A stretch of 64,000 nucleotides of DNA. Source: a virus (lineage: Duplodnaviria; Caudoviricetes). A model generated the notes under the pieces. It was not told the origin of the DNA and did not search any database. It saw nothing but the letters and a program-made list of their open reading frames with translations. Made by a program: the position numbers and the translations under genes. How positions within the stretch are numbered: position 1 is the first letter of the stretch; each line of letters begins with the position of its first letter. The stretch is taken from positions 1 through 64,000 of the IMG/VR virus record IMGVR_UViG_3300033066_000581, one strand, 5' to 3'. This document shows, piece after piece, positions 20,803 to 63,879 of this stretch.

Positions 20803-21344
20803 TTATTTGCTCCATCTATAGCAGCCTTAGTTTCTCTGACCCAGCTTTGTAAGGCAGTAAGCTGTTCTCGACATGCCTGAGCCGATGAATTGTTATCCAC
20901 GATCGTAGTTAGCGCAGCCGTGTCAGTGACACCGGAAGTTTCTGGTTTGGATGCTAGAGCTGGGTCAGACGGTTGACCCGTGGCAGATTGGTTATATACG
21001 TAAACCCATCCTTGAGATAGCTCAAACTGTGTGGGGACAACAGTATTGGCCTGGTTGACATATTCAGTTCGAACCCTGTCAACGTAACGAATTCTGTCCA
21101 CGTATTGGGTTACTACCCTATCAGAAACCTGTGACGAGGCTGTCCGGGCCCGTGACTCAGCATTAGCTAGCGCCAGTTTAATAGCTCCGACGCGTTTCTC
21201 ACATTGTACTTGTGCAGCCGCGACTCGTTTATCTCCATCTTTGATACCAGCAACGTAACCTGTACCACCAGCAGCCCCGATCACTAGTACTGCAGCCAAT
21301 CCCATGGCTGCATACTTATACGGGTTCGTAATATTTTCAAACAT
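20799..21344 (-). CDS. i-spanin (Rz-like)
   Basis: N-terminal TM, VVTQYVDRI, C-terminal C...LTALQSWV. Confidence 0.8.
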   Translation of the reverse strand: MFENITNPYKYAAMGLAAVLVIGAAGGTGYVAGIKDGDKRVAAAQVQCEKRVGAIKLALANAESRARTASSQVSDRVVTQYVDRIRYVDRVRTEYVNQANTVVPTQFELSQGWVYVYNQSATGQPSDPALASKPETSGVTDTAALTTIVDNNSSAQACREQLTALQSWVRETKAAIDGANK

Positions 21345-22015
21345 CAGTGTTCTCCACCATCTTTCTTCTTCATATATCCCTTCACAAAGTGCTTGGGGAT
21401 CTCTTTGTTGAACCGAAGTTCAGACAACGCATAGTACTCATGATCACCGGCGCTGGGGTTTTTCTTTTTCCAGCTCTCGTATTCTTCCTTATGAGCCATC
21501 CGCTTTCGCGACTCACCTACGTTTCCACCTAGGTTGTGGTCCATATGCTTCTCGGCCCAATCCTTTGGGATATGGAGTTTCACCACAGCTCGATGTTCGT
21601 GTGGGGTATTAACAGCCCCACCACCAGCAGATCTGAAGTTCGCTTCGCCACCGGACCCTGACATCGCAGCATATCCATGGGCAGTGTGGGGGTCGACGGC
21701 AACAGAGATATGACCTGTCTTCGGGTCCTTATGGGCCAGGCCATGTTTCAGGACAGAATGCAGATTTCGTTCATGTGTCCCGTGATAGGCTACGATATGA
21801 TCCTTGTCCTTATACCATCCAATATGTGGGTTCTTCTCGAACGGAACTTTATGCGCCTTGATGTCTTCTGATTCAACTAGACGTCTTCTCAGGATCTTCG
21901 GCTTCTTTTTCCTAGGCGGTTCACCGGATGGACCTACCCCGATACCTGCGACGGCTCCACCACCAGCCGCATTAGCTGGAGCATCTTCGTTAACGAAAGA
22001 CTTAAACTTCAGCAT
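21344..22015 (-). CDS. ADP-ribosyltransferase-like protein with a capsid-targeting-like leader
   Basis: YHGT...NL.SVLKHGL, S...TAHGYA, late Glu (SELRF); N-terminus MLKFKSFVNE. Confidence 0.6.
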   Translation of the reverse strand: MLKFKSFVNEDAPANAAGGGAVAGIGVGPSGEPPRKKKPKILRRRLVESEDIKAHKVPFEKNPHIGWYKDKDHIVAYHGTHERNLHSVLKHGLAHKDPKTGHISVAVDPHTAHGYAAMSGSGGEANFRSAGGGAVNTPHEHRAVVKLHIPKDWAEKHMDHNLGGNVGESRKRMAHKEEYESWKKKNPSAGDHEYYALSELRFNKEIPKHFVKGYMKKKDGGEH

Positions 22016-23568: not shown

Positions 23569-25647
23569 TTATGAAGGCTTAGTTTTAGCTTTAGCTCTAC
23601 GCGCCTCAACGGCATCGTTGTGCTGACCTACTGTAAATGGCTTGGGCTTATCTGTGGATTTCAATCGCATTCTGTAATTTTTTCCAGCCTTCTTCCAGAC
23701 ATCATCCAGAGAAGCTTCTCCAATCTGTTCTTTCATAGCATAGGCAATGTGAACTTTAGGAACAAACAGTCTTCCGCGCTTACCTTTGCCATCCATATCG
23801 TAGCTTACATTATGGCCCCAAGCCTTAGTTGAGTGATCATTGGGGTTATGCTTGGTTGGCCCATGGCCCGAAACTGTACCGTAAACCTCATGATCTTCTA
23901 CTCGACCTTCTTTCCAACCTCCATCTGGGTGCTTAAATTTCACCCTTTGGTTTGGGCGAAAGCTAGGAGCCGTTGTATTTTCTTCCAGCTGTTCGTCTTC
24001 CTTGAAGAAACCCTTCTTGTTTTTGGCGTCGTCATTCAGCTTTTCGCGAGCTTTGGTACGCTTATCGCTGTTTTCTAGGTATTTGCTTAGATTGAAGGCC
24101 TTCTTCGGCTTCTTTCCTGGCCATTCCTGATAGTGAAAATCTGGTTTGGCCTCATCAATCTGTGTGTCCTCAGCGTTCATTACTGGGGATTTGGTTAATT
24201 TTCCATTAGGATAACCAGAGGAAGTTCTGCGCTTAAGTTCCTTGTCAACCAATTTATGATGATCAGCTGCCCCGGTTTTATTGCGGGGCTTTTGTTTATC
24301 ATAATAGTCTTGATATCCTCTCAACGTTGTTGTTGAATCGTTCTTTGTTCTGGTGATTAAATCTCTAGCCGATTCACTGCCATTACTATAGCGTTTGAAA
24401 TCACGTTTCAGCTCATCGATTTGTTCTTCTTCCAGCTTACCCTTGGCTTTAAGCCCAACAACTCTTCCTCGTTTGTTTCTATATCCTGTTTCAGAATCAT
24501 TATCTTGACGAATAGCGATGATGTCGCCGGCTTTTAATGCCCCAGACCATCTTTTATCAAACCCCCTTCCTGCCTCTCCGGATGGGTTTCTACCTGGTTT
24601 ACGGTTTGGATCACTATTCATTCTAGCGTGCAAATCTGCGTGTGCTTTAGCTTTATACGATTTTAATGTGTTGGTAGAGAGCTCGTCTAATTGTTCTTCA
24701 TCCAGTTTACCCTTGGCTCTGAGGCGATCTACGGCCGGCAGAGTGACCTTGGACTTCTTTTCTTCCTCAGAACCACCTGATTTGATGGTTGAACCGATAT
24801 GGCGCTTGAAATCGGCATGAGATTTAGAAATCTTGTTCTCGAAGTTGCCCTTCTCGATGGACGTTCTCATCATTCCATGCATTCTGATAGCCTTCAGAGC
24901 ATCAGCCATATGGACAGTGTGCTTCGATCCATCGCGGAAGGAAACAGGCTTGGCCCCACGGAGGGATTGAACCTTACGCATCTGCATGATGATGTTTTGA
25001 TCTGGCTCGTTACCTTCTTCCTCACCGGCTGCTAGAGGAGTCTTGCGTGGACGACCGCGGCCTTCATCAAGGGTTTCTTCGACTAAGTGGCCATTCTTCT
25101 TGATGGCATCCTTAAGGTTGGCGTGATATGCTTGGCTTGATGCTCCTGGCTTACCAGAATAGAAAGAATATTTCTTAGAATTGTTGCCGCGTTCAGCGTA
25201 GATTTCATGACCGTCCGGATGTCTGTACAGCGTTGTCGAGGTCTGACCAGAATTCACGTGGTTAACATGCTTATACCCTGCCGCATCTAGCTCATGGGCT
25301 TTGTATCCACGACCTTCATCAAGAATTGTCTTTGATTTTGCAAGTACAGCTCGAGCTGATTCGATCAGATCATCTGATAGTCCATAGTTCTTTTCTGCAG
25401 TCATGTCTTCATCTTCTCCGATAGATCTTGATCTCTTCAGTGCTTTACTGAAATATTTGGAACGGTTCTTGTATTTACGCTTGTCGGCTTCAGTAGCATC
25501 AGGTGTATAGATCTTACCCTGTAGCTCTCTGGCCTGTGACGTAGAAGCCTTCAGGTATTCTCTAGCTCTATTCGACGACATCTCACAAATCTCTGTCACC
25601 TTACTGATAAGGGAGTCAGATAATCCATAGTTCTTGGGAGATGACAT
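23569..25647 (-). CDS. Modular basic polyprotein, candidate internal head protein precursor
   Basis: Repeated acidic linkers (ILDEG, TLDEG, EEQLDELS, EEQIDELK, TQIDEA, EQLEEN, EQIGEA) separating K/R/H-rich modules; late promoter GATAAATA at 25678-25685. Confidence 0.65.
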   Translation of the reverse strand: MSSPKNYGLSDSLISKVTEICEMSSNRAREYLKASTSQARELQGKIYTPDATEADKRKYKNRSKYFSKALKRSRSIGEDEDMTAEKNYGLSDDLIESARAVLAKSKTILDEGRGYKAHELDAAGYKHVNHVNSGQTSTTLYRHPDGHEIYAERGNNSKKYSFYSGKPGASSQAYHANLKDAIKKNGHLVEETLDEGRGRPRKTPLAAGEEEGNEPDQNIIMQMRKVQSLRGAKPVSFRDGSKHTVHMADALKAIRMHGMMRTSIEKGNFENKISKSHADFKRHIGSTIKSGGSEEEKKSKVTLPAVDRLRAKGKLDEEQLDELSTNTLKSYKAKAHADLHARMNSDPNRKPGRNPSGEAGRGFDKRWSGALKAGDIIAIRQDNDSETGYRNKRGRVVGLKAKGKLEEEQIDELKRDFKRYSNGSESARDLITRTKNDSTTTLRGYQDYYDKQKPRNKTGAADHHKLVDKELKRRTSSGYPNGKLTKSPVMNAEDTQIDEAKPDFHYQEWPGKKPKKAFNLSKYLENSDKRTKAREKLNDDAKNKKGFFKEDEQLEENTTAPSFRPNQRVKFKHPDGGWKEGRVEDHEVYGTVSGHGPTKHNPNDHSTKAWGHNVSYDMDGKGKRGRLFVPKVHIAYAMKEQIGEASLDDVWKKAGKNYRMRLKSTDKPKPFTVGQHNDAVEARRAKAKTKPS

Positions 25648-25680
25648 AGCGTTATTGGCCTTTTCTAGTATTCTCTGTAT

Positions 25681-26637
25681 TTATCTACGTGGTCTTCCAC
25701 GCTGATCAGACAGATAACGGCCAATACGATCAGATTGTGTGAATGGCTTTTCTTTAGCCATACCAGACTCGGTGACCGCCTTCAAGGCCTTATGGAAGTG
25801 GGCAGCCAACCCATCAGAGATCCCGGAGTGATCAGCCATCTTCAAGGCGTTTGGAACCCGGTTGTGCGGGTGCTTGTCGACAAATTCCTTGACCTTAGCA
25901 ATCTGTTCCTTAGTCCCGCGGTATTTGTCAAAATGCCCGGCCGGGTGCTTTTCTCCCATCTCAGCAGACGTCTTGATTGTGTGATCGATATCAGAATTCC
26001 ATTTGGCGTGGGCATCATCGATGGCCTTATGTTTGTAGTTCACTTCCGTCGACTCTGTCACAGCCCTCTTCAGCTTCTGGCCGGCCAGGATCGCACCAGC
26101 CATACGCTTGTCGAACTTCTTCCCAATCTTTGGTCGATCAAACTTATCACCAACCATAGCCTTTCGATCAGCATAATTATCGTCCAGATATTTGTTCAAA
26201 GCCCCCTTTGAAAGCTCGTGGATCGTAGTGGTTTCTTCCTTGATCTTCTTTTTGCTTGGGTTCATACCCTTCGTGGCTAGGCGCCGGGCAACAGTCATTA
26301 GTTGATCATCGCCAGTTGAGAGTTGAAGCAAAGCCAATGCGGCCAATAGATAGTTTGTGTTCACTGGGTTCGAACCATCTACGACGCGGTTCAGAGCCCC
26401 GGCGATCATGATCGCCAGGCTCTTTTTGGATGTGGTTGGGTCTGATGGATCTCCAGGAGGAGTGGCATCTTCGGTGATATCAGATAGAGTAGCAACCATA
26501 CCAGACGACATTTCATGAACGGCTAGGACTCCGGCACTAAACTTTGGTGGGTGCATTGGAGAAACGGGGGTGATATCAGTTGCTATCAGATGGTCCATAT
26601 ACCTGGACTTGATGGAACGTTCGAGTGATTTGGTCAT
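25681..26637 (-). CDS. Modular protein, candidate internal head protein
   Basis: VHEMS, ITED, IKEE, IHELS, AVTES x2 linkers; ELS..L..Y module. Confidence 0.6.
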   Translation of the reverse strand: MTKSLERSIKSRYMDHLIATDITPVSPMHPPKFSAGVLAVHEMSSGMVATLSDITEDATPPGDPSDPTTSKKSLAIMIAGALNRVVDGSNPVNTNYLLAALALLQLSTGDDQLMTVARRLATKGMNPSKKKIKEETTTIHELSKGALNKYLDDNYADRKAMVGDKFDRPKIGKKFDKRMAGAILAGQKLKRAVTESTEVNYKHKAIDDAHAKWNSDIDHTIKTSAEMGEKHPAGHFDKYRGTKEQIAKVKEFVDKHPHNRVPNALKMADHSGISDGLAAHFHKALKAVTESGMAKEKPFTQSDRIGRYLSDQRGRPRR

Positions 26638-27335
26638 TTTTTCGGCTCCGTAATGCCTCTTCGTTTGGCTTCTTCAGCTTTCCATTGTTTGGCCAACTGA
26701 GATTGTGGGGGTTTGGAAGCCCACGCCCTGATTTTTCTGTGAGTATGATCTAGGTTGTCAACATCCTCAGTATCGTTGTTAACTACGTGAAGGTGCTCAG
26801 GCCCGAAGATACGTTGGTATTTACCTAAGTTATTTTGGACACCTTCCCAGGACTTCTGAACGATATTTCTAGGAATGACCCTAGGTCTGCGTTCATTTCT
26901 GGCGTGTGCCGTCGAGGCCTTGGTATTTACGAAGACCATCTTGGTGTCATATCCTAGAGACTTGAAGTGACTATGGAGTTTGGCCAGCTTCTCGTAGTCC
27001 TTACCGGTTCCATCGATGACAACCCCCTGACGCCCGTGGATGGCTAACTTCTGCTTTACTTCGATAGTCTTCTTGGCTCTCTGCCGGACGGCATCTCTAG
27101 CCTTAGCTTCTCTGTCTGGCATTTTTGGATCTAATCCATGTTTAGCCATCATATGTTCGAATGCGATGTCAGAGTTGATCTCAGTTAGCCCCAGGGTCTT
27201 CAAGGCAAGTTTCTTGGCCACGTACGACTTTCCTGACCCAGGGCCGCCAGCTAGAAATACAGCCTTGAACTTAGCAGGGTCATGAATGCCCTCCGTGATC
27301 AATTCTGGGTCATAGGTCTCTAGGAAGGATTTCAT
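26634..27335 (-). CDS. Zeta-toxin-like P-loop kinase
   Basis: KAVFLAGGPGSGKS, INSD, VIDGTG, ARN.RR.R; leader MKSFLE...LITEG. Confidence 0.75.
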   Translation of the reverse strand: MKSFLETYDPELITEGIHDPAKFKAVFLAGGPGSGKSYVAKKLALKTLGLTEINSDIAFEHMMAKHGLDPKMPDREAKARDAVRQRAKKTIEVKQKLAIHGRQGVVIDGTGKDYEKLAKLHSHFKSLGYDTKMVFVNTKASTAHARNERRPRVIPRNIVQKSWEGVQNNLGKYQRIFGPEHLHVVNNDTEDVDNLDHTHRKIRAWASKPPQSQLAKQWKAEEAKRRGITEPKK

Positions 27336-28246
27336 TACTTTTTGACTTCGCTGACCTTATGTGCACCGATACTATTCAGATATTCCCGGCCGGCGTTGTT
27401 GAATGCGTGGTTGGTACGAAACTTACCAGCCTTGGTTCTATAGATGTGGACGGATGCATCTGGGTTTCTGTCTTTATCGAGACTCTTTTTTGCGCTAGCT
27501 TCAGCCTCGGCCGGAGAATCGTAGTCCAGAGATTCTGAAACGTTAACGTGTGTATGGAGTTGATTGTGGTCGGCATAGGATCCTAGTCGAGCGCCAGAAA
27601 TTCCAGCAGCTCGAAGTCGATCGATGATCTTAGCACCCGTTCTGGTGTGGGTATTATAGACATCACTTTGCCGATCACTAGCATTTCCAATTTCTGATTG
27701 GATATGAATCTTGCTTCCGGCATGGCCTACAATGCGATGTTCGGGGCCCAAGGCCTTTTGTAATTTACGCACGTCAACCGCCTCAGAGACAGCTGCCGGT
27801 CCTTTCAGGACACTCGCCAGGCGCTTCTGCTCAGCCTGTTTGATCCTTGGGTAGAGCTTCTTTGCTAAATTGCGAATGGCCTTGATTCTCTTTTCGGTCA
27901 TCTGATCAATCTGGATCTTTTCTGATGATGATAGTTCCTGGTAACGCAATCCGCGATCACCTGCCACCTTTCGTCTGACGATTTCTCTGGCCGCAGCCGC
28001 CGATCTCTTTTTGAGATTCTTGTCACCAGCCATTCGGCGTCTGGCAACCTCGCGTGATCTCTTGAGCTTGGGTTCAATCCGACGAATAGCCATTGCTCTC
28101 TTCATGCGCTGTGGAATCGTCAGGACTGCTTCGTACACGGTCCCATCGGTGGTAGGACTGAAGTCGATCTTATCCTTCTTCGTACTTTTGCCAAGAGTTG
28201 CCTTCTTCTTGGCTGGATTCTTCTTTGTTAGGTCTTCATCAGCCAT
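27335..28246 (-). CDS. Basic modular protein, candidate head core protein
   Basis: YEAVLT..QR.KRA...RR helical basic domain, then VSEA/VSES linkers; late promoter GATAAATA at 28280-28287. Confidence 0.6.
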   Translation of the reverse strand: MADEDLTKKNPAKKKATLGKSTKKDKIDFSPTTDGTVYEAVLTIPQRMKRAMAIRRIEPKLKRSREVARRRMAGDKNLKKRSAAAAREIVRRKVAGDRGLRYQELSSSEKIQIDQMTEKRIKAIRNLAKKLYPRIKQAEQKRLASVLKGPAAVSEAVDVRKLQKALGPEHRIVGHAGSKIHIQSEIGNASDRQSDVYNTHTRTGAKIIDRLRAAGISGARLGSYADHNQLHTHVNVSESLDYDSPAEAEASAKKSLDKDRNPDASVHIYRTKAGKFRTNHAFNNAGREYLNSIGAHKVSEVKK

Positions 28247-28716: not shown

Positions 28717-29350
28717 GGACGTAAATGGTATCGGCGGCCACTTGATTGATTGACCTATAACCAAGTGTGCTTAGGAACTGATGCACCTCAGAATGTTCAC
28801 CGCAGTTCTCGCCGACAATACATGGCTTGTATCTCTTGATCGTCTCGATAGCACCCTTCAGGACGTTTATCTCATAGCCTTCGACGTCAAGTTGGATCAA
28901 ATCACATGACTTCAGATCCATGGAGTCGATCGTCATGATAGGGATAAAGGCATCAGGTTCATCGATGACCTTGTGCATCCCGACGTTGTCATCACCAGAT
29001 CTAAGAACGCTGATGAACCCGTTATGATCACCCAGGGCAGTATTGTATTTGATCACGTGATCGAAGGGATTATTCAGGACTAAGCAATGGAAGTTGATAC
29101 CGTCGGGTTCAAACGTATAGACGTGCTTGAAGATATCTGCATAAAATCTAGTATACATTCCGCAGTTACCACCGGCAGTGATCACCGTATTGAAATCTTT
29201 GACGTAGTTAAACATCCGTTGTTTATGTTGGGTCTCCCAATCATTCTTGGGACCTTCCCAGGCGCCGTTATCACCTACAGCCCACCACCAACCCTTGATG
29301 CCGTTGGCCTCGGCATCCTCACGATATTCAATTCTCTCTAGGAAGTTCAT
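28703..29350 (-). CDS. FkbM-family methyltransferase
   Basis: [27 protein letters not shown]. Confidence 0.85.
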
Positions 29351-29934
29351 TCTGATCCTTTTCTCACATCATCGTAAAGTTCCTTGGCGTGTTGATCTGA
29401 CACGTGGCCAGGGACGCCTTTTCGGAACGACTTAAAATCACCGGACTTGGCATGGTCACGCATCTTGGATGCTGACATGCCGGCAGTTCCCTCAGCATCA
29501 GGGTCTCTGTGCCCAGCAGACACGACCTTGATGTGCTTGAAGTTGAACTCCTTGCCGTTGTACTTGTGTAATAATTTATGCATCTCCTCAACCCTATCTG
29601 ACCCTGCAACCATGGTCAGATGAGTATACCCTGCTGCGTTGAGCCGCTTTGCGTGGTGGATGAACGACGGGTGTTCTTTGGATGATGCGTGGATATTAGC
29701 TCCAGGAAAAAACCGCTTGGCGTGCTTAAGTTTTTGAGCCGCGGTTAACGGGTTCTTTTTAGCATCTTGGGTATGTGAAACTACGATCTCATGATCGGCA
29801 TGTTGTTTCTTGGCTTCGGACTTCACCTTCTCCACAAGCTTTTCATGCCCAGTAGTTGGGGGATTCATCCGGCCAAATGCGAATACAACGTGCTTGTCGG
29901 TTGACTCCGCAATGAATGTGGTGAAAGTCTTCAT
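29347..29934 (-). CDS. HIGH-class (cytidylyltransferase-like) nucleotidyltransferase with a capsid-targeting-like leader
   Basis: FGRMNPPTTGH, KNPL, VAGSDR, SAG.RDPD, MSASKMR; N-terminus MKTFTTFIAE. Confidence 0.85.
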   Translation of the reverse strand: MKTFTTFIAESTDKHVVFAFGRMNPPTTGHEKLVEKVKSEAKKQHADHEIVVSHTQDAKKNPLTAAQKLKHAKRFFPGANIHASSKEHPSFIHHAKRLNAAGYTHLTMVAGSDRVEEMHKLLHKYNGKEFNFKHIKVVSAGHRDPDAEGTAGMSASKMRDHAKSGDFKSFRKGVPGHVSDQHAKELYDDVRKGSE

Positions 29935-31696: not shown

Positions 31697-31731
31697 AATA
31701 AGATGGTGGGTTACCAGCAATCTTATTTATC
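31697..31731 (-). promoter_or_regulatory. Late promoter GATAAATA (31724-31731) plus hairpin AATAAGAT/ATCTTATT abutting the HEG RBS
   Basis: 8-bp perfect stem; promoter overlaps the upstream stop codon. Confidence 0.65.
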
Positions 31732-32241
31732 AAGTAATGAAATTCCAAATATATCATCACCAATGTTAAGATCTTTTGCCTCAATCCATTGCCCAGATGA
31801 CAACATAACCTGATGATCATCAGTCACTTTGATAATATGTTGTGCATCTAATTCAATTTCAACCCAGGCCTTATCCCCAAGATACGCCAGCTTATCTAGA
31901 ACTTGAGTGAATTCTATTTCTCCAGCCTTGTTATACCCCAGAACCTTTAAATTTGAAGACGTAGACCAATTTTCAAATATCTCTTTAATAGACATAACTC
32001 CGTGTGTCTCAGTCAGCAATTCTGTGTTGCCTGAGACACACCCATCCCACTTGGTGCTGATCTTATGCCCAGTGTCTTCACCTGCCATAGTTTTCTTGGC
32101 GTGTTCTAAAGTATTGATTGCATGCTTCAGGCCGGCAGCACCAGCATTAATGGGGTGATCTTCTAAATGCTCAAGATGTTTAAGCTTAGAAGTCTCAAGG
32201 CCGGTGGATTCTGTCAAGTATTCTTTGAATGTCAATGTCAT
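31723..32241 (-). CDS. N-terminal 67 aa of the KxDG protein plus a 105-aa split-intein N fragment (31726-32040)
   Basis: HLEHLED...STKWDG|CVSGNT; block B VTDDH; WIEAKDL.IGD; leader MTLTFKEYLTE. Confidence 0.88.
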   Translation of the reverse strand: MTLTFKEYLTESTGLETSKLKHLEHLEDHPINAGAAGLKHAINTLEHAKKTMAGEDTGHKISTKWDGCVSGNTELLTETHGVMSIKEIFENWSTSSNLKVLGYNKAGEIEFTQVLDKLAYLGDKAWVEIELDAQHIIKVTDDHQVMLSSGQWIEAKDLNIGDDIFGISLLDK

Positions 32242-55713: not shown

Positions 55714-57804
55714 ATGGCCTTTCCAGTGTCCGCAGGCGTAAACACTACAGAAATTGATCTTACAACAGTTCCGGCTGCAGTATCTACCACAGAAGGCGCA
55801 ATCGCCGGGGTATTTCGTTGGGGCCCAATTGATAAGCTTGTCCTTATCGATCGTGAAGACACTCTAGTTAATCGCTTCGGAAAGCCTACTAACCATAACC
55901 CAGAAACTTGGTTTGTTGCAGCCAACTTCCTATCATATTCAGATGGCATTTTCGTATCCCGTGCAGCCAACACATCAGACGCTACCGGAGCAAATGGTGT
56001 ACTTTCTGCGATGGCCAACACTTCAGCCATCACTTCAAACCTGGTGCACCTGGTGAAGAATGAAGACGATTATCTAACCAAGGAAGCTACGTTCGAATCA
56101 GGCGTTCAATATATCGCCCGTTGCCCTGGTGAGCTTGGCAACTCGCTGAAGATCTCGGTGTGTGATGCGGCTAACCAATACAGCTCAAATATCTCACTTA
56201 TATTCACCGTATCATATACAAACTCAACCGCTTCTATCATTACATTCACCGTAGGCTCAAATACGGCAAACGTTGTTCTGGTTGCATGCAACACAACCAT
56301 CACCAACACAGACATGGCTGCAGCCGCAACGACCGTGCAATCACAGCTGGTTGTTGGTGATATTTTGCAAGCCGGTAACTCTAGCGTTGGTAAACAATTC
56401 GTTCGCATCACTAGCTTGGGTACAGTTGGTAACTCAGTCGTTAATTCAGTAGCCAGAGGGTTCTTCACTCTAGGGTTCGAGTCACTATATTCATTGTCAG
56501 CCAACGTGACAGACACTACAATCTATCGTAACTGGGAATATTATAACGCAGTCGACTCAGCTCCTGGACAATCCAGCTACGTGGCCCAATTCGGTAATAC
56601 GGTAGCCAACGATGAAGTCCATATTGTTGTTTCCGACGAAGATGGTAAGTTCACAGGCGTTCCAGGTACGATCCTAGAGGTCTATAAGGGGCTATCTCGT
56701 GCTTCTGATGCTAAAACTTCAGATGGTGCAGTTAACTACTACAAGACGGTTATCAACAACAATTCACGTTACATTTGGTACTCAAAGGATCGCACCAACG
56801 CGGTTTCAAACACCTCAGCCAAAATCGCATCGTCAACCAACTCCAAGCCCCTAACGGTATCATTCATCAACGGTTCTGATGGTGACAATGAAACCAACGT
56901 TTCTGTTGGGGTCATCGCCACTGCATATGATAAATTCAGATCAGCTGAAGATATCGACGTGTCTCTACTCATGGCTGGTAAGGCCAAGGGTGGTACCAAT
57001 GGCGAACAAATGGCCAACTATCTGATCGACAACCTGGCCGAAGTCCGCAAGGATCTCGTCGTGTTCGTGTCTCCTGATAAGGATGATGTGGTAAACAACT
57101 CAGGTCGTGACGAATACAACGACGTTGGCGTGTTTAAGCAATCTCTGCGTTCGTCATCATATTACGTGATGGACTCTGGATACAAGTACCAATACGATAA
57201 GTACAACGACGTTTATCGCTATATTCCACTGAATGGCGATATCGCTGGCCTGGCGGCCCGTACGGATCAAACCAATGATCCATGGTTCTCTCCAGGCGGT
57301 TTCAACCGTGGACAGATCAAGAACGTTGTGCGTCTGGCTTGGAACCCCAACAAGACCGATCGTGACTATCTCTACAAGCTGAACATCAACCCAGTCGTGA
57401 CCTTCCCAGGTCAAGGAACTGTCCTGTACGGTGACAAGACTGGGCTATCTAAGCCATCCGCCTTTGATCGCATCAACGTGCGTAGACTTTTCATCACCCT
57501 TAGAAAGGCCATCAGCCGCGCGGCAAACTTCACCCTATTCGAGTTCAACGATGAATTCACTAGAGCGCAGTTCCGTAGCATCGTTGAGCCGTTCCTGAGA
57601 GACGTTAAAGGTCGTAGAGGTATCACGGACTTTAGAGTGGTCTGCGACGAAACAAACAACACGGCCCAGGTTATTGATGCCAACCAATTCGTTGGTGATA
57701 TTTACGTTAAGCCAAACCGTTCGATCAACTTTGTGCAACTCAACTTCGTAGCAGTCCGCTCTGGGGTAGAATTCTCAGAAGTTGTCGGCTCTTTCAACGG
57801 CTAA
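55714..57804 (+). CDS. gp18: Tail sheath protein gp18
   Basis: EIDLT, F.WGP, YDKYND.YR, PWFSPGG.NRG, GDKT, FDRINVRRLF, FEFND.FTR. Confidence 0.96.
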   Translation: MAFPVSAGVNTTEIDLTTVPAAVSTTEGAIAGVFRWGPIDKLVLIDREDTLVNRFGKPTNHNPETWFVAANFLSYSDGIFVSRAANTSDATGANGVLSAMANTSAITSNLVHLVKNEDDYLTKEATFESGVQYIARCPGELGNSLKISVCDAANQYSSNISLIFTVSYTNSTASIITFTVGSNTANVVLVACNTTITNTDMAAAATTVQSQLVVGDILQAGNSSVGKQFVRITSLGTVGNSVVNSVARGFFTLGFESLYSLSANVTDTTIYRNWEYYNAVDSAPGQSSYVAQFGNTVANDEVHIVVSDEDGKFTGVPGTILEVYKGLSRASDAKTSDGAVNYYKTVINNNSRYIWYSKDRTNAVSNTSAKIASSTNSKPLTVSFINGSDGDNETNVSVGVIATAYDKFRSAEDIDVSLLMAGKAKGGTNGEQMANYLIDNLAEVRKDLVVFVSPDKDDVVNNSGRDEYNDVGVFKQSLRSSSYYVMDSGYKYQYDKYNDVYRYIPLNGDIAGLAARTDQTNDPWFSPGGFNRGQIKNVVRLAWNPNKTDRDYLYKLNINPVVTFPGQGTVLYGDKTGLSKPSAFDRINVRRLFITLRKAISRAANFTLFEFNDEFTRAQFRSIVEPFLRDVKGRRGITDFRVVCDETNNTAQVIDANQFVGDIYVKPNRSINFVQLNFVAVRSGVEFSEVVGSFNG

Positions 57805-58419: not shown

Positions 58420-60138
58420 TTGGCACAACTTTTTGGGTTTGAGATCTCCCGTATTTCCGATAAGGAAAAGGAAAAATTAGTTTCCTTTGTTCCTAAGCAG
58501 GAAGACGATGGTGCTACAACTATTCAAGCCGGGGGCGTGTATGGAACGTACGTAGACCTTGACGGGTCGATTAAAAATGAAGCGGAACTAGTTACTAAGT
58601 ATCGGGATGCTGCCCAGCAGCCAGAGATGGATATGGCCATTGATAACGTCATCAATGATGCTATCGTCCAAGAAGATGATAAGCCGATTGTCGAATTGGT
58701 TCTAGATGACGTTAAAGTTACTGCCAATATCAAGAAATTAATTCTGGATGAATTCCAAAATATTCTTAATCTGTTAGAATTCAACCAATATGCATATGAA
58801 ATCTTCCGTAGATGGTATATTGATGGAAGACTATACTATCACGTAATCGTTGATAAGGATAACGTTGCTGATGGGATTAAGGAGCTTCGTTACGTAGACT
58901 CCAGAAAAATGCGCAAGGTTGTAGAAACCCGTAAACGTAAGGTTAACACCAACGTTTCTGTGACAGAAACGTCATCAGAGTACTATATCTACTCTGATAG
59001 AGGGTTTAAGGGAAAATCATCCGGATATGGGGGTGGTAACACCACTCAGGGAAATACACTTCGCATTGCCAAGGACAGCATCGTCTTCGTTTCCTCTGGG
59101 TTAACCAATACCGAGGGAGACATGATCCTTTCGTATCTTCACAAGGCCCTGAAGGTCCTAAATCAGCTTAGAGCCCTTGAGGACTCGCTGATCATCTATC
59201 GTATCTCGAGAGCCCCAGAACGTCGAGTATTTTATATCGACGTCGGCAATTTGCCCAAAGCCAAGGCTGAACAGTACGTCCAGAGCGTCATGGCCAACTT
59301 CAAAAACAAATTAGTCTACGATTCTGCGACCGGCGAAATCCGTGATGATCGCAAGTTCATGACCATGCTGGAGGATTTCTGGCTTCCGAGACGTGAAGGT
59401 GGTCGTGGAACTGAAATCACCACCCTACCTGGCGGGCAGAACCTCTCACAGATCGATGATATCGAGTATTTCCAACAGAACCTATACAAGGCTCTGAACG
59501 TTCCAATCTCTAGACTACAGCCTGAGTCGACCTTCTCCTTCGGTAGAGCTACCGAAATATCGCGAGATGAAGTAAAATTCTCCAAATTCATTACCCGGCT
59601 GCGTGGGAAATTCTCAGTTCTGTTCCTAAAGCTACTTGAAACTCAACTGATCCTTAAGAATATCATCACGTCTGAGGATTGGGAAGAGTTCAAGCACCAA
59701 ATTAGATTTAAGTTTGCTACCGATAACTATTTTGACGAGCTCAAGGAAACTGAAGTTCTTCGTGATCGAATTGCAATGCTTAGAGATGTTGATGATTATG
59801 CTGGAAAGTACTATTCACATAGTTGGATCCGTAGAACAGTTCTACGTCAAACTGAAGAAGAAATTGACGAGATCGATAAAGAAATCAAAGAAGAGCTCGA
59901 CAACGAACAGTATAATCCTCCAGCAGACATGTCTGGTGAGCCCGATGGTGGGGCCCCGGAGAACCCAGGGGTAGGTGATGGTGGATCGGGCTCGGATTCA
60001 AATGATCCAGGAAACCAGCAGATCGACCTATCTTCTGAACCCCCACAAATTCTAGGAAAATTGGCCAACAGACAAGATGCAATAGGTCTCGCCGCCAAGC
60101 AAGAGATAGCATCAAGGCGTTCCGGAACAAAGTCTTAA
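58420..60138 (+). CDS. gp20: Portal protein gp20
   Basis: IYRISRAPERRVFYIDVGNLPK.KAEQY, EDFWLPRREGGRGTEITTLPGG. Confidence 0.97.
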   Translation: MAQLFGFEISRISDKEKEKLVSFVPKQEDDGATTIQAGGVYGTYVDLDGSIKNEAELVTKYRDAAQQPEMDMAIDNVINDAIVQEDDKPIVELVLDDVKVTANIKKLILDEFQNILNLLEFNQYAYEIFRRWYIDGRLYYHVIVDKDNVADGIKELRYVDSRKMRKVVETRKRKVNTNVSVTETSSEYYIYSDRGFKGKSSGYGGGNTTQGNTLRIAKDSIVFVSSGLTNTEGDMILSYLHKALKVLNQLRALEDSLIIYRISRAPERRVFYIDVGNLPKAKAEQYVQSVMANFKNKLVYDSATGEIRDDRKFMTMLEDFWLPRREGGRGTEITTLPGGQNLSQIDDIEYFQQNLYKALNVPISRLQPESTFSFGRATEISRDEVKFSKFITRLRGKFSVLFLKLLETQLILKNIITSEDWEEFKHQIRFKFATDNYFDELKETEVLRDRIAMLRDVDDYAGKYYSHSWIRRTVLRQTEEEIDEIDKEIKEELDNEQYNPPADMSGEPDGGAPENPGVGDGGSGSDSNDPGNQQIDLSSEPPQILGKLANRQDAIGLAAKQEIASRRSGTKS

Positions 60139-60141
60139 TAG

Positions 60142-60149
60142 TATAAATA
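60142..60149 (+). promoter_or_regulatory. Late promoter TATAAATA
   Basis: Exact consensus. Confidence 0.85.
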
Positions 60150-60174: not shown

Positions 60175-60477
60175 ATGACCTACCAAATTTCAGATCTGAT
60201 TGTAGAATCATTGAATGATTCGCCAGTTGATGTTGAGAAAATCTTCGATGAACTAATGGAAGATCGTATCGCCGAAGCCATTCTTCTACGTAAGCAAACC
60301 CTGGCTAGCGCGCTAGTTTCTGAGTCTGCTGAACCAGATGAAGATGAAGATGATGACGTCGAATTTGACGATACCGACTTTGATGTTGACGATGACGACG
60401 ATACAGACTTTGGTGAGATCGATCTCGATGACATCGACTTTGACGACATCGAAGGGTTCGATGAAGATGACGACTAA
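60175..60477 (+). CDS. Acidic prohead core protein (gp67-like position)
   Basis: Directly after the portal; Asp-rich tail. Confidence 0.65.
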   Translation: MTYQISDLIVESLNDSPVDVEKIFDELMEDRIAEAILLRKQTLASALVSESAEPDEDEDDDVEFDDTDFDVDDDDDTDFGEIDLDDIDFDDIEGFDEDDD

Positions 60478-61243
60478 GACTCCAGACGAAGAAAAGAAAT
60501 TCGTCAAGGTTAACGACCCAAGTCTAAAGCACCGCCTGAAGCACGTGATCGTTAAACACCCAGACCGCAACGGTAACGGCGATGACGTATTCAATGCTGC
60601 AAACATCAAAACTATCGATAGAGCCAAGGAACGACATGGATATAATCCAGGCGAAGATGCTGAGATCTACGAAGATGACTCGGGAGAAGAAGCTGTGACA
60701 GAACAGACCCCCATCAACGAACTTTCAAAGCCTTTGCTAGGACGTTACATCAAAAGAGCCACAACAGATGTAGCCTTCCATGCCAATATGGCCGGCAAGA
60801 GCAAAACCAAGGCTGCCGTTGGCCACAATCGAGAACGCGTCGGGGCTAGAGCAATTGGAATTTCTAAGGCTACTGACCGTTTAACCAAAGAAGACCTTGA
60901 CGAAGCGCTCCAAGAGGCCTATGACTCTGGGTTTGTTGGTGCTGTTAACCACCATACCCCTGAAGGTAAGGCCAAGATCAAGCAAATTCAAAACATGGTC
61001 AAGGACCACAACAAGAAGATGCGGGCTGAAGGAAAGCATCATGAGCAACTCAAAGTGGCTGCTTACGGGCGTCTAGGAAAGAACAACCCCAACGCAGCGA
61101 AATATTCTCCGAACAACGAAAAGAGAATTGCGGCCGGCGGGAACAAGAATAACAGACCGCCAAAGATCTCTCCGCAGGATGCATCGCATGTTCGCATCCA
61201 CGTCACAAAGAAACGAAAAAATTGGGAAGGAAAGTGGGTCTAA
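60461..61243 (+). CDS. Prohead core/internal head protein with an ELS..L..Y module
   Basis: VTEQTPINELSKPLLGRYIKRA, DLDEALQEA linkers; lies between gp20 and gp21. Confidence 0.6.
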   Translation: MKMTTKTPDEEKKFVKVNDPSLKHRLKHVIVKHPDRNGNGDDVFNAANIKTIDRAKERHGYNPGEDAEIYEDDSGEEAVTEQTPINELSKPLLGRYIKRATTDVAFHANMAGKSKTKAAVGHNRERVGARAIGISKATDRLTKEDLDEALQEAYDSGFVGAVNHHTPEGKAKIKQIQNMVKDHNKKMRAEGKHHEQLKVAAYGRLGKNNPNAAKYSPNNEKRIAAGGNKNNRPPKISPQDASHVRIHVTKKRKNWEGKWV

Positions 61244-61809
61244 TGGCTATCACAACAGAACACAAAGCAATCATGGAACAGTTGATCACAGAGCTTTCTG
61301 ATGATACTCTGAAGTCATATCAAAAGAAGGCTAAAGCTCAGGTAGATGCTCTAGGGCACAAGCGCGGACCAAAGTCTAAAGCTGAAAAGGCAACTATTAG
61401 TAAAAGACAGGCTGGGTCATATAAGGCTACTAAAACCATTGGTGACCGAGCTGCTGTAGCATACGAAAAGCGCAGTGCAGACAATACTAAAGCCTTTCAT
61501 GAAGCAATTCACGACAGTCTGGCAGCACATGGGTTTAAGCACGCAAACGAAGGACCCAAACATGACGTTTGGGTGAAACACCACAAGTCGGGCGTTTCAA
61601 TCTTCGCAAAGCATAAACACCCATCTGATCATCACCGCGACGGTGAACTTTCAATGATTTCTTCTGATGGACATTCAACCCACGTTCAAAGACCATGGGG
61701 GTTGAATAAACCAACAGAAGCAGTAAAGACCGACACGCATGACGAAATTAAGAAATTCCACGATCGCGTCATCAAAGACAGAACCGAAGATAACGAGTAC
61801 GGTAGATAA
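61243..61809 (+). CDS. Internal head protein candidate with an ELS..TL..Y module
   Basis: LITELSDDTLKSYQKKA...KRQAGSYKA. Confidence 0.6.
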   Translation: MAITTEHKAIMEQLITELSDDTLKSYQKKAKAQVDALGHKRGPKSKAEKATISKRQAGSYKATKTIGDRAAVAYEKRSADNTKAFHEAIHDSLAAHGFKHANEGPKHDVWVKHHKSGVSIFAKHKHPSDHHRDGELSMISSDGHSTHVQRPWGLNKPTEAVKTDTHDEIKKFHDRVIKDRTEDNEYGR

Positions 61810-61812
61810 TTC

Positions 61813-62205
61813 ATGGCATATACAATCACATCCAACAAGAAAAACGCATCGATAGTTATTCACGCTTCAGCGAATTCTGGAAATGTGATCGTTGTCGGTA
61901 ATTCAACTGTATCCAATATCGCATCTGGCAATGAGATTGTCACTGGGGCATACATTTCTCAGATCATTGCGGGTTCTCCATCTGGCAACGCGGCGTATTG
62001 GGTCATCAAACGCGGAGCCAACGTAGTGTCAGTCGTAGATTCATCAACGATGATCGACTATGCTGGATCTGGAATGAGTCTTAATGTCGATGCTGCTGCA
62101 AATGTTGTGATAGAACTCGTCGGAGCCACGAACGGAGCCATCATGATTGAACTCCAGAAGCAAACCAGTACCTCAGATTACTACACTCAACCATTGGTGC
62201 CATAA
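61813..62205 (+). CDS. Hypothetical virion protein
   Basis: Beta-rich; coupled to gp21. Confidence 0.6.
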   Translation: MAYTITSNKKNASIVIHASANSGNVIVVGNSTVSNIASGNEIVTGAYISQIIAGSPSGNAAYWVIKRGANVVSVVDSSTMIDYAGSGMSLNVDAAANVVIELVGATNGAIMIELQKQTSTSDYYTQPLVP

Positions 62206-62885
62206 TGAAGCTGATCACTGAAACTATCGAGAACGTAGGCGTAATTGAAGAGGCTGTTGATAGTACAGGCAAGAAGAGCCTGTTTATTGAAGGCGTATTC
62301 CTACAGGCCGGAGTAAAGAACCGCAACGGCAGAATTTATCCTCCGGAGATCCTCTCTAGAGAAGTTAACCGATACGTTACTGAGAATATTAATCCAGGCC
62401 GAGCTTACGGTGAACTTGGACACCCAGCTGGCCCAACTATCAATCTCGATCGCGTCTCCCACATGATCAAATCGATCAAGCAGGAAGGCAACAATTTTAT
62501 TGGTAAGGCCAAGATCCTTGATACCCCGATGGGGAACATCGTTCGCAACCTAATCGCTGAAGGCGCCCAATTGGGAGTTTCTTCGCGTGGTATGGGTACA
62601 CTAAAGATGAATAGTCAAGGCATCAACGAAGTCCAAAACGATTTCCATATTGCCACCGCTGCCGATATCGTTGCTGATCCTTCGGCTCCTGATGCGTTTG
62701 TGAACGGGATTATGGAATCAAAGGAATGGGTATGGAGTAATGGCCAGTTCATTCCAGCAAAACTAGAAGAAATTAGAGAAGATATTGAAACTGCAGCTAG
62801 ATCTCGTCAATTAACCGAGCAAGCCAAGTTCAAGGCCTTCACTAAGTTTATTCAAAACATCTCAAATTCACAATCTTATAAATAA
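62205..62885 (+). CDS. gp21: Prohead protease gp21
   Basis: MKLITE, NRNGRIYP, GELGHP, GVSSRGMG, DIVADPSAPDA. Confidence 0.96.
   Translation: MKLITETIENVGVIEEAVDSTGKKSLFIEGVFLQAGVKNRNGRIYPPEILSREVNRYVTENINPGRAYGELGHPAGPTINLDRVSHMIKSIKQEGNNFIGKAKILDTPMGNIVRNLIAEGAQLGVSSRGMGTLKMNSQGINEVQNDFHIATAADIVADPSAPDAFVNGIMESKEWVWSNGQFIPAKLEEIREDIETAARSRQLTEQAKFKAFTKFIQNISNSQSYK
62877..62884 (+). promoter_or_regulatory. Late promoter TATAAATA
   Basis: Exact consensus overlapping the gp21 stop. Confidence 0.8.
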
Positions 62886-62910: not shown

Positions 62911-63879
62911 ATGGCCGTTAACGAAACAGTGGAACTTGACGAAACTGCAGCTGCAGATACTCTGAAGCCAGGCAGCAAGACCGAGCTACTTCAGAACGCT
63001 CTTTCAAAGATGGCCGGAATGTCATCTGAAGATTTGTCACATTTCCTAAATGATTCTCTGGCACAAGTCGGAAATTCATCGGCCGGCGTGCCTGAAGGCG
63101 CTGCAGCAAAGAACAAGGCTTCTATCGCAATGAAGGAGTCTATCAAGGAAGACATTGACAGCATGTTTGGTGAGGATCTCTCTGAGGACCTTAAGGACAG
63201 AGCCACAATGATCTTCGAAGCAGCCGTCAGTGCTCAAGTCGAAATTGGTCTGGCCTCTCTAGCAGAAGAATTCCAAGAAGCCCTGGATGAAGAACTAGAA
63301 AATCAAGCAGCTGAGCTTGTTGAGAAGGTAGATCGCTATCTTTCGTACGTCACTGAACAGTGGATGGAAAAGAACGAAGTAGCCATCAACGGTGCACTAC
63401 GTCTTGAAATTGCTGAGGACTTCATCGGTGGTCTGAAAACCCTATTTGAAGATCATTATATCGACGTTCCTGACGACAAGTACGACGTGGTTGATGAACT
63501 AACCCAAACCGTCGAAGATCTTGAAGCCCGCCTGAACGAAAGTACTGCTCTAGCACTAGAGCTCATCGCTGAAAGAGAAGATCGTATCTCTAGTGATATC
63601 GTTCTAGAAGTTGCTGAAGGTCTTTCTGCAACTCAGGTTGAAAAGCTGAAGACTCTGTCTGAAGGTGTATCGTTCGACACCGAAGATGATTTCCGCAATA
63701 AAGTTCAAACCCTGCGCGAAAGTCTAATCGAAAAGAAGCCAGTCGCCGGTAAAACAGGTCTAATTGTCGAAGAATCTGCTGGTAAGACAGTAGATGAGCT
63801 TGATGAAGAAGATAAGAAAGTAATCAGCCCTCAAATGAGACGTTATGCTGATGCTATTTCTAGAACAGTTGCCCACTAA
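62911..63879 (+). CDS. gp22: Prohead scaffold gp22
   Basis: IFEAAV, VD.YL.YV.E.W...N, EDFI.GLK.LF..HYIDVP, M..Y..AI. Confidence 0.93.
   Translation: MAVNETVELDETAAADTLKPGSKTELLQNALSKMAGMSSEDLSHFLNDSLAQVGNSSAGVPEGAAAKNKASIAMKESIKEDIDSMFGEDLSEDLKDRATMIFEAAVSAQVEIGLASLAEEFQEALDEELENQAAELVEKVDRYLSYVTEQWMEKNEVAINGALRLEIAEDFIGGLKTLFEDHYIDVPDDKYDVVDELTQTVEDLEARLNESTALALELIAEREDRISSDIVLEVAEGLSATQVEKLKTLSEGVSFDTEDDFRNKVQTLRESLIEKKPVAGKTGLIVEESAGKTVDELDEEDKKVISPQMRRYADAISRTVAH

Follow-up and report, generated by a model that had tools for sequence, protein, structure and literature searches.

How one phage gene could encode, and exchange, a whole set of small basic proteins is the question raised by an open reading frame (ORF) found at positions 23569-25647, on the reverse strand, of the viral record IMGVR_UViG_3300033066_000581 (Caudoviricetes). 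The stretch analysed here, referred to as the window, comprises the first 64 kb of this 93-kb IMG/VR contig (G000), the completeness of which was estimated at ca. 52%. The textbook case of phage proteins that enter the cell with the DNA and overcome its defences is that of the T4 internal proteins and, to our knowledge, the diversification of such cargo sets is known only as gene-by-gene replacement. The ORF starts with ATG and encodes 692 amino acids (78 kDa; isoelectric point, pI, 9.66; 12.7% lysine and 7.2% arginine). In silico analyses leave very little doubt that its product is a cassette protein with module turnover at its linkers, and the sequence data make it reasonably probable that a T4-like phage expresses this protein late, as a cargo polyprotein carrying modules similar to internal proteins in one chain.

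Modular architecture of the protein

Cutting the product in silico after each [L/I]-x-E triplet yields eight basic modules that range from 48 to 122 residues (5.4-13.5 kDa, pI 9.2-10.4); the acidic pieces are three pentapeptides (ETLDE, EQLDE and EQIDE) and two leader peptides. This agrees with the initial annotation, which had described a chain of K/R/H-rich modules separated by acidic linkers: all the linkers that it listed are present and the modules are basic. From the N-terminus, leader 1 (residues 1-22, MSSPKNYGLSDSLISKVTEICE; 25582-25647 on the reverse strand, as are all features of this gene) is acidic (pI 4.9) and ends with I-C-E. It is followed by module D (residues 23-78, 25414-25581; 6.5 kDa, pI 10.3), a helical hairpin that ends with I-G-E, and by an acidic spacer joined to a second leader copy having its own methionine (residues 79-111, 25315-25413; DEDMTAEKNYGLSDDLIE/SARAVLAKSKTILDE/, where slashes, here and below, mark predicted cuts). 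Judged from its sequence, the latter arrangement looks like the scar of a two-gene fusion, and the same type of leader forms the N-termini of P0012 and P0013 (P and L numbers designate related proteins and loci, respectively). Next come module E, the second to be counted (residues 112-190, 25078-25314; 8.7 kDa, pI 9.4), with five strands and one helix, module B (residues 196-317, 24697-25062; 13.5 kDa, pI 10.2), module S (residues 323-407, 24427-24681; 9.3 kDa, pI 10.3) and module F (residues 413-499, 24151-24411; 10.0 kDa, pI 9.7), which is present in P0012 in another order. The C-terminal part is composed of module A (residues 500-556, starting with AKPDFHYQEWPGKKPKK, 23980-24150; 6.8 kDa, pI 9.2), common to P0009-P0011 and P0016, of the strand-rich module G (residues 557-644, 23716-23979; 9.9 kDa, pI 9.5), which directly follows module B in P0002 and P0004, and of module A' (residues 645-692, starting with ASLDDVWKKAGKNYRMRLK, 23572-23715; 5.4 kDa, pI 10.4), which is internal in P0002 and P0005.

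Folding as one domain, an outcome that the initial annotation had set against its own proposal, is not predicted. AlphaFold2 modelling of the full chain gave a predicted template modelling score (pTM) of 0.27, with a predicted local distance difference test score (pLDDT) below 50 in the linkers, and the ESM Atlas model a pTM of 0.19; a single large domain was rejected on these values. Confidence was good for modules D and E and highest for the module B core (pLDDT ca. 95). As modelled, the 692-residue protein is a string of beads. Structure neighbours in the ESM Atlas were unnamed viral clusters only. Scans of Pfam and PHROG provided no usable family for the ORF (at E<=0.1, Pfam gave a single chance-level match, to Docking), and neither a search of PDB sequences with the ORF nor a megablast of its 10-kb surroundings against cultured phages returned a match.

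One element of the initial annotation, the AT-richness of the middle modules, did not hold up. The guanine plus cytosine (GC) content of individual modules is 0.40-0.51 (0.44 for S, 0.40 for F and 0.51 for B), which falls inside the 5-95% range of the contig (0.38-0.53 in 250-nt windows), so that the difference is numerically visible but carries no weight. A foreign origin of these modules, as judged by GC, was rejected since the values are within the contig's normal range.

Gain, loss and reordering of modules at the linkers

Repeats are present in the DNA of the gene. The linker repeat occurs as copy 1 (24680-24732, coding for RAKGKLDEEQLDEL) and copy 2 (24410-24462, coding for KAKGKLEEEQIDEL), which are 79% identical over 53 nt and lie 270 nt apart from start to start, that is 90 codons. 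Over the first 39 nt, 34 of 39 positions are identical, in line with the 39-bp junction repeat (24410-24448 and 24680-24718) noticed at first. The duplicated KNYGLSD start, also noticed then, corresponds to a 20-nt repeat at 90% identity (25373-25392 and 25616-25635; 243 nt or 81 codons apart) encoding MSSPKNYGLSDSLI and MTAEKNYGLSDDLI. Finally, module E is flanked by a 17-nt repeat (25055-25071 and 25307-25323, 88%) that codes for LDEGRG.

Eleven relatives of the polyprotein were retrieved by a word-indexed search and aligned to the window protein. In P0001, which has three aligned-residue differences from the window protein, exactly 90 residues are absent between the linker repeats. This 90-codon indel corresponds to module S plus one linker copy, and these are also missing in P0003 and in L002. 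The latter, a contig 97-99% identical to that of the window, aligns to positions 1-968 and 1201-2079 of the gene with an overlap of 38 nt, which locates both breakpoints within the linker repeat. A turnover of modules through recombination at linker repeats, as initially proposed, is thus substantiated by a 270-nt indel whose breakpoints fall inside a 38-nt repeat. Module E is missing in P0003 and P0004 with the joint inside the LDEG linker, P0002 possesses an additional module of 92 residues with EETLDE on either side, and modules G and A' are relocated in P0002, P0004 and P0005. The P0003 product (496 amino acids, from a JGI contig) has been called from Met23, which immediately follows the I-C-E of leader 1; this would reflect a missing leader or a miscalled start.

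Synteny around the gene is common to L002, L003, L004 and L005, which makes these loci orthologous. Architectures found at orthologous loci are DEBSFAGA' (window), DEBFAGA', DBFAGA', DEBA'A, DETBGFA'AO, DBGAOA', PFBU and PVB. Syntenic orthologues therefore differ by whole-module indels, substitutions and reorderings with ends at [L/I]-x-E linkers, and the colinearity that had been named in advance as contradicting module turnover was not observed. Likewise, when 17 family proteins were cut mechanically at each [LI]-x-E and the pieces clustered, homologous modules were recovered in differing combinations. A test based on the ends of high-scoring segment pairs gave a median distance from breakpoint to cut site of 9 versus 19 residues (P ca. 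0.0006), a result that is noisy owing to biased composition and long low-identity alignments; the turnover claim thus rests on the explicit alignments and on the DNA breakpoints instead.

The linker motif and the resident prohead protease

In the 692-residue protein, all 13 [LI]xE triplets are located at the nine junctions and none inside a module, while composition alone predicts 4.6 (Poisson P 0.001). This excess is the largest among the 117 ORFs of the 93-kb contig, the next being those of the scaffold (16 versus 6.9) and of the protease (8 versus 2.9). In T4, gp21 cleaves after L/I-X-E, and Asp at P1 inhibits processing; the scaffold and the protease are both gp21 substrates, with the scaffold gp22 being cut at many sites (PMC9026906). 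At the sequence level, the linker pattern matches this published rule.

Motif usage was further compared between observed and shuffled sequences for 155 family proteins. [LI]xE occurred 926 times versus 596 after shuffling (1.55x), whereas [LI]xD (0.90x), [LI]E (0.91x) and [LI]..E (0.92x) were not in excess. Ala was enriched 2.8x at P1' and Asp 4.4x at P2, and the order of residues mattered, with LDE outnumbering LED (284 versus 24), LNE outnumbering LEN (73 versus 22) and LGE outnumbering LEG (67 versus 20). A family protein has 2.8 acidic [LI]-x-E linkers on average, and the median distance between them is 82 residues. Such a bias for Glu at the third position indicates selection at the peptide level rather than general acidity. 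The idea that the pattern is kept solely for DNA homology was rejected, the linkers diverging in both DNA and peptide except for [LI]-x-E, which persists among relatives clustered at <=50% identity.

These figures bear on a first alternative, in which the product would be an uncleaved multidomain DNA-binding protein, such as a phage chromatin or nucleoid-remodelling factor acting in the infected cell, with linkers serving as spacers or masks and [L/I]-x-E reflecting a structural preference such as helix capping. The strongly basic modules and the AT-hook of module B (see below) would suit such a role, as would the prediction of helices for linkers 317-344 and 405-421, the lack of a T4-type capsid targeting sequence on the ORF and the location of the gene outside the head cluster. 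A spacer, however, leaves unexplained the strict third-position Glu (LDE far above LED, with no [LI]xD excess), the motif-free module interiors, and the T4-type leaders and protease-adjacent paralogous modules that occur among relatives, and we consider this alternative quite unlikely.

A candidate for the cleaving enzyme is encoded in the same window: the ORF at 62205-62885 (forward strand) is a gp21-type prohead protease that matches phrog_207 (E 5e-80) and the T4 gp21 structure 5JBL (E 2e-23). GELNAP and GVASRG of the crystallised T4 chain correspond to GELGHP and GVSSRG in this ORF product, in which the His of the former and the Ser of the latter motif were taken, from this comparison, as the putative catalytic pair.

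Head genes, leaders and the gp67/gp68 slot

T4-type head and tail genes occur in the window and include those for the sheath (55714-57804), the portal (58420-60138) and the scaffold (62911-63879). The nearest cultured relatives of the portal protein, at 51-55% identity, are Stenotrophomonas phage DLP_6 and cyanomyophages. The major capsid protein (63935-65284 in G000) has a candidate maturation site, LLTE/SAPTNA, located ca. 21 residues before its conserved VRR..ICGVQPM block.

The interval between portal and protease, corresponding to the gp67/gp68 slot of T4, is held by two forward-strand ORFs (60338-61243 and 61222-61809) and not by the polyprotein gene. Both contain modules common to the polyprotein family, since they match 14 and 11 family proteins at E<=1e-5 (best E 2e-15 and 4e-20); a module boundary in these ORFs reads, for example, EQLITE/LSDDTLKSY. 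Their listed starts look doubtful, with a long Met/Thr-rich N-terminus and a TTG codon. The start of module S (LS..TLKSY) displays weak paralogy to ORF 61222-61809, as well as to ORF 25681-26637 immediately upstream of the polyprotein gene.

This finding raises a second alternative, namely that the polyprotein is an accessory of the prohead core or scaffold resembling T4 gp67, gp68 or gp22, which would be cut with most fragments expelled before DNA packaging and which would have a role in assembly or head size. Beside the related modules in the gp67/gp68 slot, it would be in keeping with the multi-site cutting of T4 core proteins (PMC9026906) and with a [LI]xE excess similar to that of the scaffold. 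T4 scaffold fragments, however, are expelled to make room for DNA, while the products predicted here are basic, include an AT-hook and should stay on DNA; gain and loss of modules between near-identical strains is also unexpected for an essential assembly factor. A core or scaffold accessory is therefore judged unlikely.

The capsid targeting sequence of T4 reads MKTYQEFIAE. Its role has been described (PMC9026906). Similar leaders, all ending with hydrophobic-x-Glu, are carried by four other ORFs (29347-29934, 31723-32241 and 21344-22015 on the reverse strand, and 87408-88001 on the forward strand of G000), and read MKTFTTFIAE/S, MTLTFKEYLTE/S, MLKFKSFVNE/D and MVQSFKSFLTE/K. Products of these ORFs are a HIGH-motif nucleotidyltransferase, a ligase-like fragment, a protein with a weak PARP/ART match and a His-rich protein of 197 amino acids. 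Within the polyprotein family, at least 10 members start with MKTF..L..E and so resemble the T4 sequence, and the leader type of ORF 23569-25647, which ends around residue 22 with [LIV]-x-E, was found on at least 25 of 152 members.

HIGH-motif nucleotidyltransferases are annotated as cytidylyltransferases in cultured phages and are fused to family modules in other phages (P0100 and others). P0100, P0083, P0107, P0127 and others combine the nucleotidyltransferase with a segment resembling the product of 27335-28246 and with module B. In DLP_6 (KU682439.2; L006, 11815-13983), the protein annotated as "cytitidyltransferase" is a multidomain product of 722 amino acids with a leader (MKNIKDILE/A), a nucleotidyltransferase, a basic segment and a C-terminal DGHHRW, the last being a candidate ParB-like motif when read by eye.

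Module B and its family

Module B, the most conserved module of the polyprotein, belongs to no Pfam or PHROG family. It consists of an N-terminal AT-hook (GRGRPRK, residues 196-202), a 70-residue core arranged as helix, hairpin and three helices, and a disordered basic tail. GRGRPRK combines the R-G-R-P core of AT-hooks with flanking basic residues and lies in a segment predicted to be disordered, as AT-hooks are; it represents a predicted DNA-binding motif. An exhaustive HMMER search retrieved 357 representative clusters at E<=0.001, mostly matching module B, in proteins of 96-1188 residues. The RGRP core is kept in 111 of 156 retrieved proteins and nearly always follows E-[LI]-D-E-(A/G). With the module B model, Foldseek found no credible match (best E 1.1) and the best hit of VIA-align (Z 4.9) was to part of the AR9 RNA polymerase, so that no fold was assigned.

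A late-promoter-like box

A T4-type late-promoter-like box (of the NATAAATA type) that reads GATAAATA is located at 25678-25685 on the reverse strand, 31 nt upstream of the ATG of the polyprotein gene. Its spacing falls in the same class (27-43 nt) as that of the boxes found before sheath, scaffold, capsid and fibre genes, and the exact sequence TATAAATA is enriched in the window, with 8 occurrences versus 1.9 expected. No ORF is listed as starting in the 80 nt that follow one of the TATAAATA copies (60142-60149).

A proposed route from prohead to host

Release of the modules by the prohead protease, followed by their injection as effectors or DNA-condensing peptides, is consistent with all the indirect tests, that is with the specificity of the motif, the capsid-targeting leaders of relatives, the gp21 homologue, the late-promoter-like box and the AT-hook. 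In the route that we propose, the N-terminal leader (M..KNYGLSDSLI..V..[LIV]xE) would dock the chain in the prohead core, where the gp21 homologue (62205-62885) would cleave after every linker Glu. Acidic peptides released from the leader and the linkers would exit the head, the linkers possibly masking the basic modules as long as the chain is uncut, and the basic modules would remain on the packaged DNA by charge neutralisation and, through the AT-hook, by binding to the minor groove. They would then enter the host alongside the DNA, and some may protect that DNA or counter host defences, as does T4 IPI.

Several observations weigh against this proposal. The gene is located ca. 35 kb from the head gene cluster, and its leader, MSSPKNYGLSDSLISKVTEICE, differs from the T4-type capsid targeting sequence. 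The upstream box reads GATAAATA and not TATAAATA, shares nucleotides with the upstream gene's stop codon and, as a 7-mer alone, is not rare. Several P1' residues of the ORF (L, E, N, M and D) differ from the small residues that are most enriched family-wide. Modules S, F and G were modelled at low confidence, as a result of shallow alignment or disorder. Neither the entire ORF nor module B had a tblastn match among 50,697 records of cultured phages, and cleavage, packaging and ejection of the polyprotein are themselves predictions from the genes.

Since each cassette would bring its own cut site, recombinant joints formed within linkers would still give correctly released products, and because recombinants would stay processable the cargo set could vary quickly. 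We advance as plausible, if somewhat short of probable, the broader proposal that an uncultured clade of T4-like phages loads its capsids from combinatorial cargo polyproteins, in which protease-site DNA would double as an in-frame recombination joint, its populations continuously reshuffling the DNA-coating or anti-defence proteins that they inject. Cut sites apparently do double as recombination joints, and strains that are otherwise nearly identical already differ by whole modules. Such combinatorial cargo would represent a cassette system for virion contents with a logic comparable to that of integrons or diversity-generating arrays. If cleavage and packaging occur as proposed, acidic [L/I]-x-E linkers spaced by ca. 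80 residues would provide a rule for finding virion cargo in uncultured T4-like phages, the large pool of unannotated modules (at least 357 clusters, most of them matching module B) would supply candidates for DNA protection or anti-defence, and the locus would serve as a natural template by which one gene loads a T4-type capsid with several proteins.

Comparison with known systems

The closest parallel is provided by the T4 internal proteins IPI, IPII, IPIII and Alt, small basic proteins whose propeptide ends with L/I-x-E and is cut by the prohead protease (PMC9026906, PMC3012670). They differ greatly from one phage to a related one, are non-core, associate with the DNA inside the head and leave the virion together with it (PMC9026906, PMC3012670); the present modules likewise vary between relatives and are predicted to stay on the packaged DNA and to be ejected with it. 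With sizes of ca. 8, 10 and 20 kDa and a basic character (PMC9026906), they resemble the predicted modules in both size and charge; further common points are the L/I-x-E at junctions, the presence of a gp21-family protease in the same phage and the T4-type leader that is carried elsewhere in the family and by further ORFs of the contig. T4 internal proteins are, however, produced from separate genes, each with its own leader, while here eight modules are in one chain with internal cut-site linkers and the ORF bears a leader of another type. No sequence similarity of the ORF to IPI-III or Alt was detected, whether by tblastn in the 50,697 phage records or through PHROG and Pfam families, and a literature search found no description of a T4-type internal-protein polyprotein. 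Repoila et al. (1994) reportedly proposed that conserved leader-coding DNA mediates the exchange of internal-protein genes; by analogy, the linker repeats would be an in-frame equivalent.

Single polypeptides with several Glu cut sites used inside the prohead are also known from the T4 core (gp22, gp67 and gp68) and, as inner-body proteins, from phiKZ-like giant phages (PMC9026906, PMC5694885), cutting being predicted in the present case, and modules paralogous to those of the polyprotein family occupy the gp67/gp68 gene slot. In contrast to arrays of unrelated exchangeable basic mini-domains, these core and inner-body proteins are conserved assembly components, and no homology between them and the polyprotein was detected. 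In RNA viruses and retroviruses, a viral protease likewise separates the functional units of polyproteins at short consensus sequences, as is predicted here, but such polyproteins have a fixed order and contain essential replication or structural proteins, whereas the present units are accessory and vary between strains.

Polyvalent proteins share with the 692-residue product many domains per polypeptide, mosaicism and a predicted packaging and co-delivery with DNA, but mostly have enzymatic effector domains and often their own peptidase (PMC5512222); the polyprotein is instead made of basic, non-enzymatic modules of ca. 50-120 residues between putative sites for a protease acting in trans. 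A third alternative is that it belongs to this group (Iyer et al. 2017; PMC5512222) and is delivered intact, any processing being due to another protease or taking place only after entry. Its mosaic, rapidly shuffled architecture would fit, and so would relatives that fuse family modules to enzymes, such as the HIGH nucleotidyltransferase of P0100 and the 722-residue protein of DLP_6 with its candidate ParB-like end. Pfam and PHROG scans of the ORF, however, detected neither a peptidase nor a polyvalent marker domain (MuF, MPTase, ART, ParB, nucleases), and the linker motif corresponds to the rule of the resident prohead protease, which renders this alternative very improbable.

Neighbouring genes

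Neighbours conserved at the orthologous loci are, upstream, a methyltransferase, a DnaJ-like protein, a protein of ca. 300 amino acids, a zeta-toxin-like kinase and a protein of ca. 315 amino acids and, downstream, a 272-residue protein, a 90-residue protein and a DUF7207 protein; the zeta-like kinase could not be recognised at this locus in L005. The immediate upstream neighbour in the window (25681-26637, reverse strand, 318 amino acids) is modular as well, with an acidic I-H-E linker followed by a LS..L.KY module and with RGRPRR at its C-terminus. Its orthologue in L003 has 244 amino acids and lacks the module that begins directly after the acidic linker, and that in L002 has 303.

The zeta-toxin-like P-loop kinase (26634-27335, reverse strand; Pfam E 4e-15) has an N-terminus, MKSFLETYDPELITE/G, that resembles a targeting leader and, on that basis, the kinase may be packaged too. 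Finally, two ORFs of 194 and 321 amino acids at 9366-10915 of L002 are found in place of the ART-like ORF of the window (21344-22015, 223 amino acids), showing that this block of leader-bearing genes is also variable between strains.

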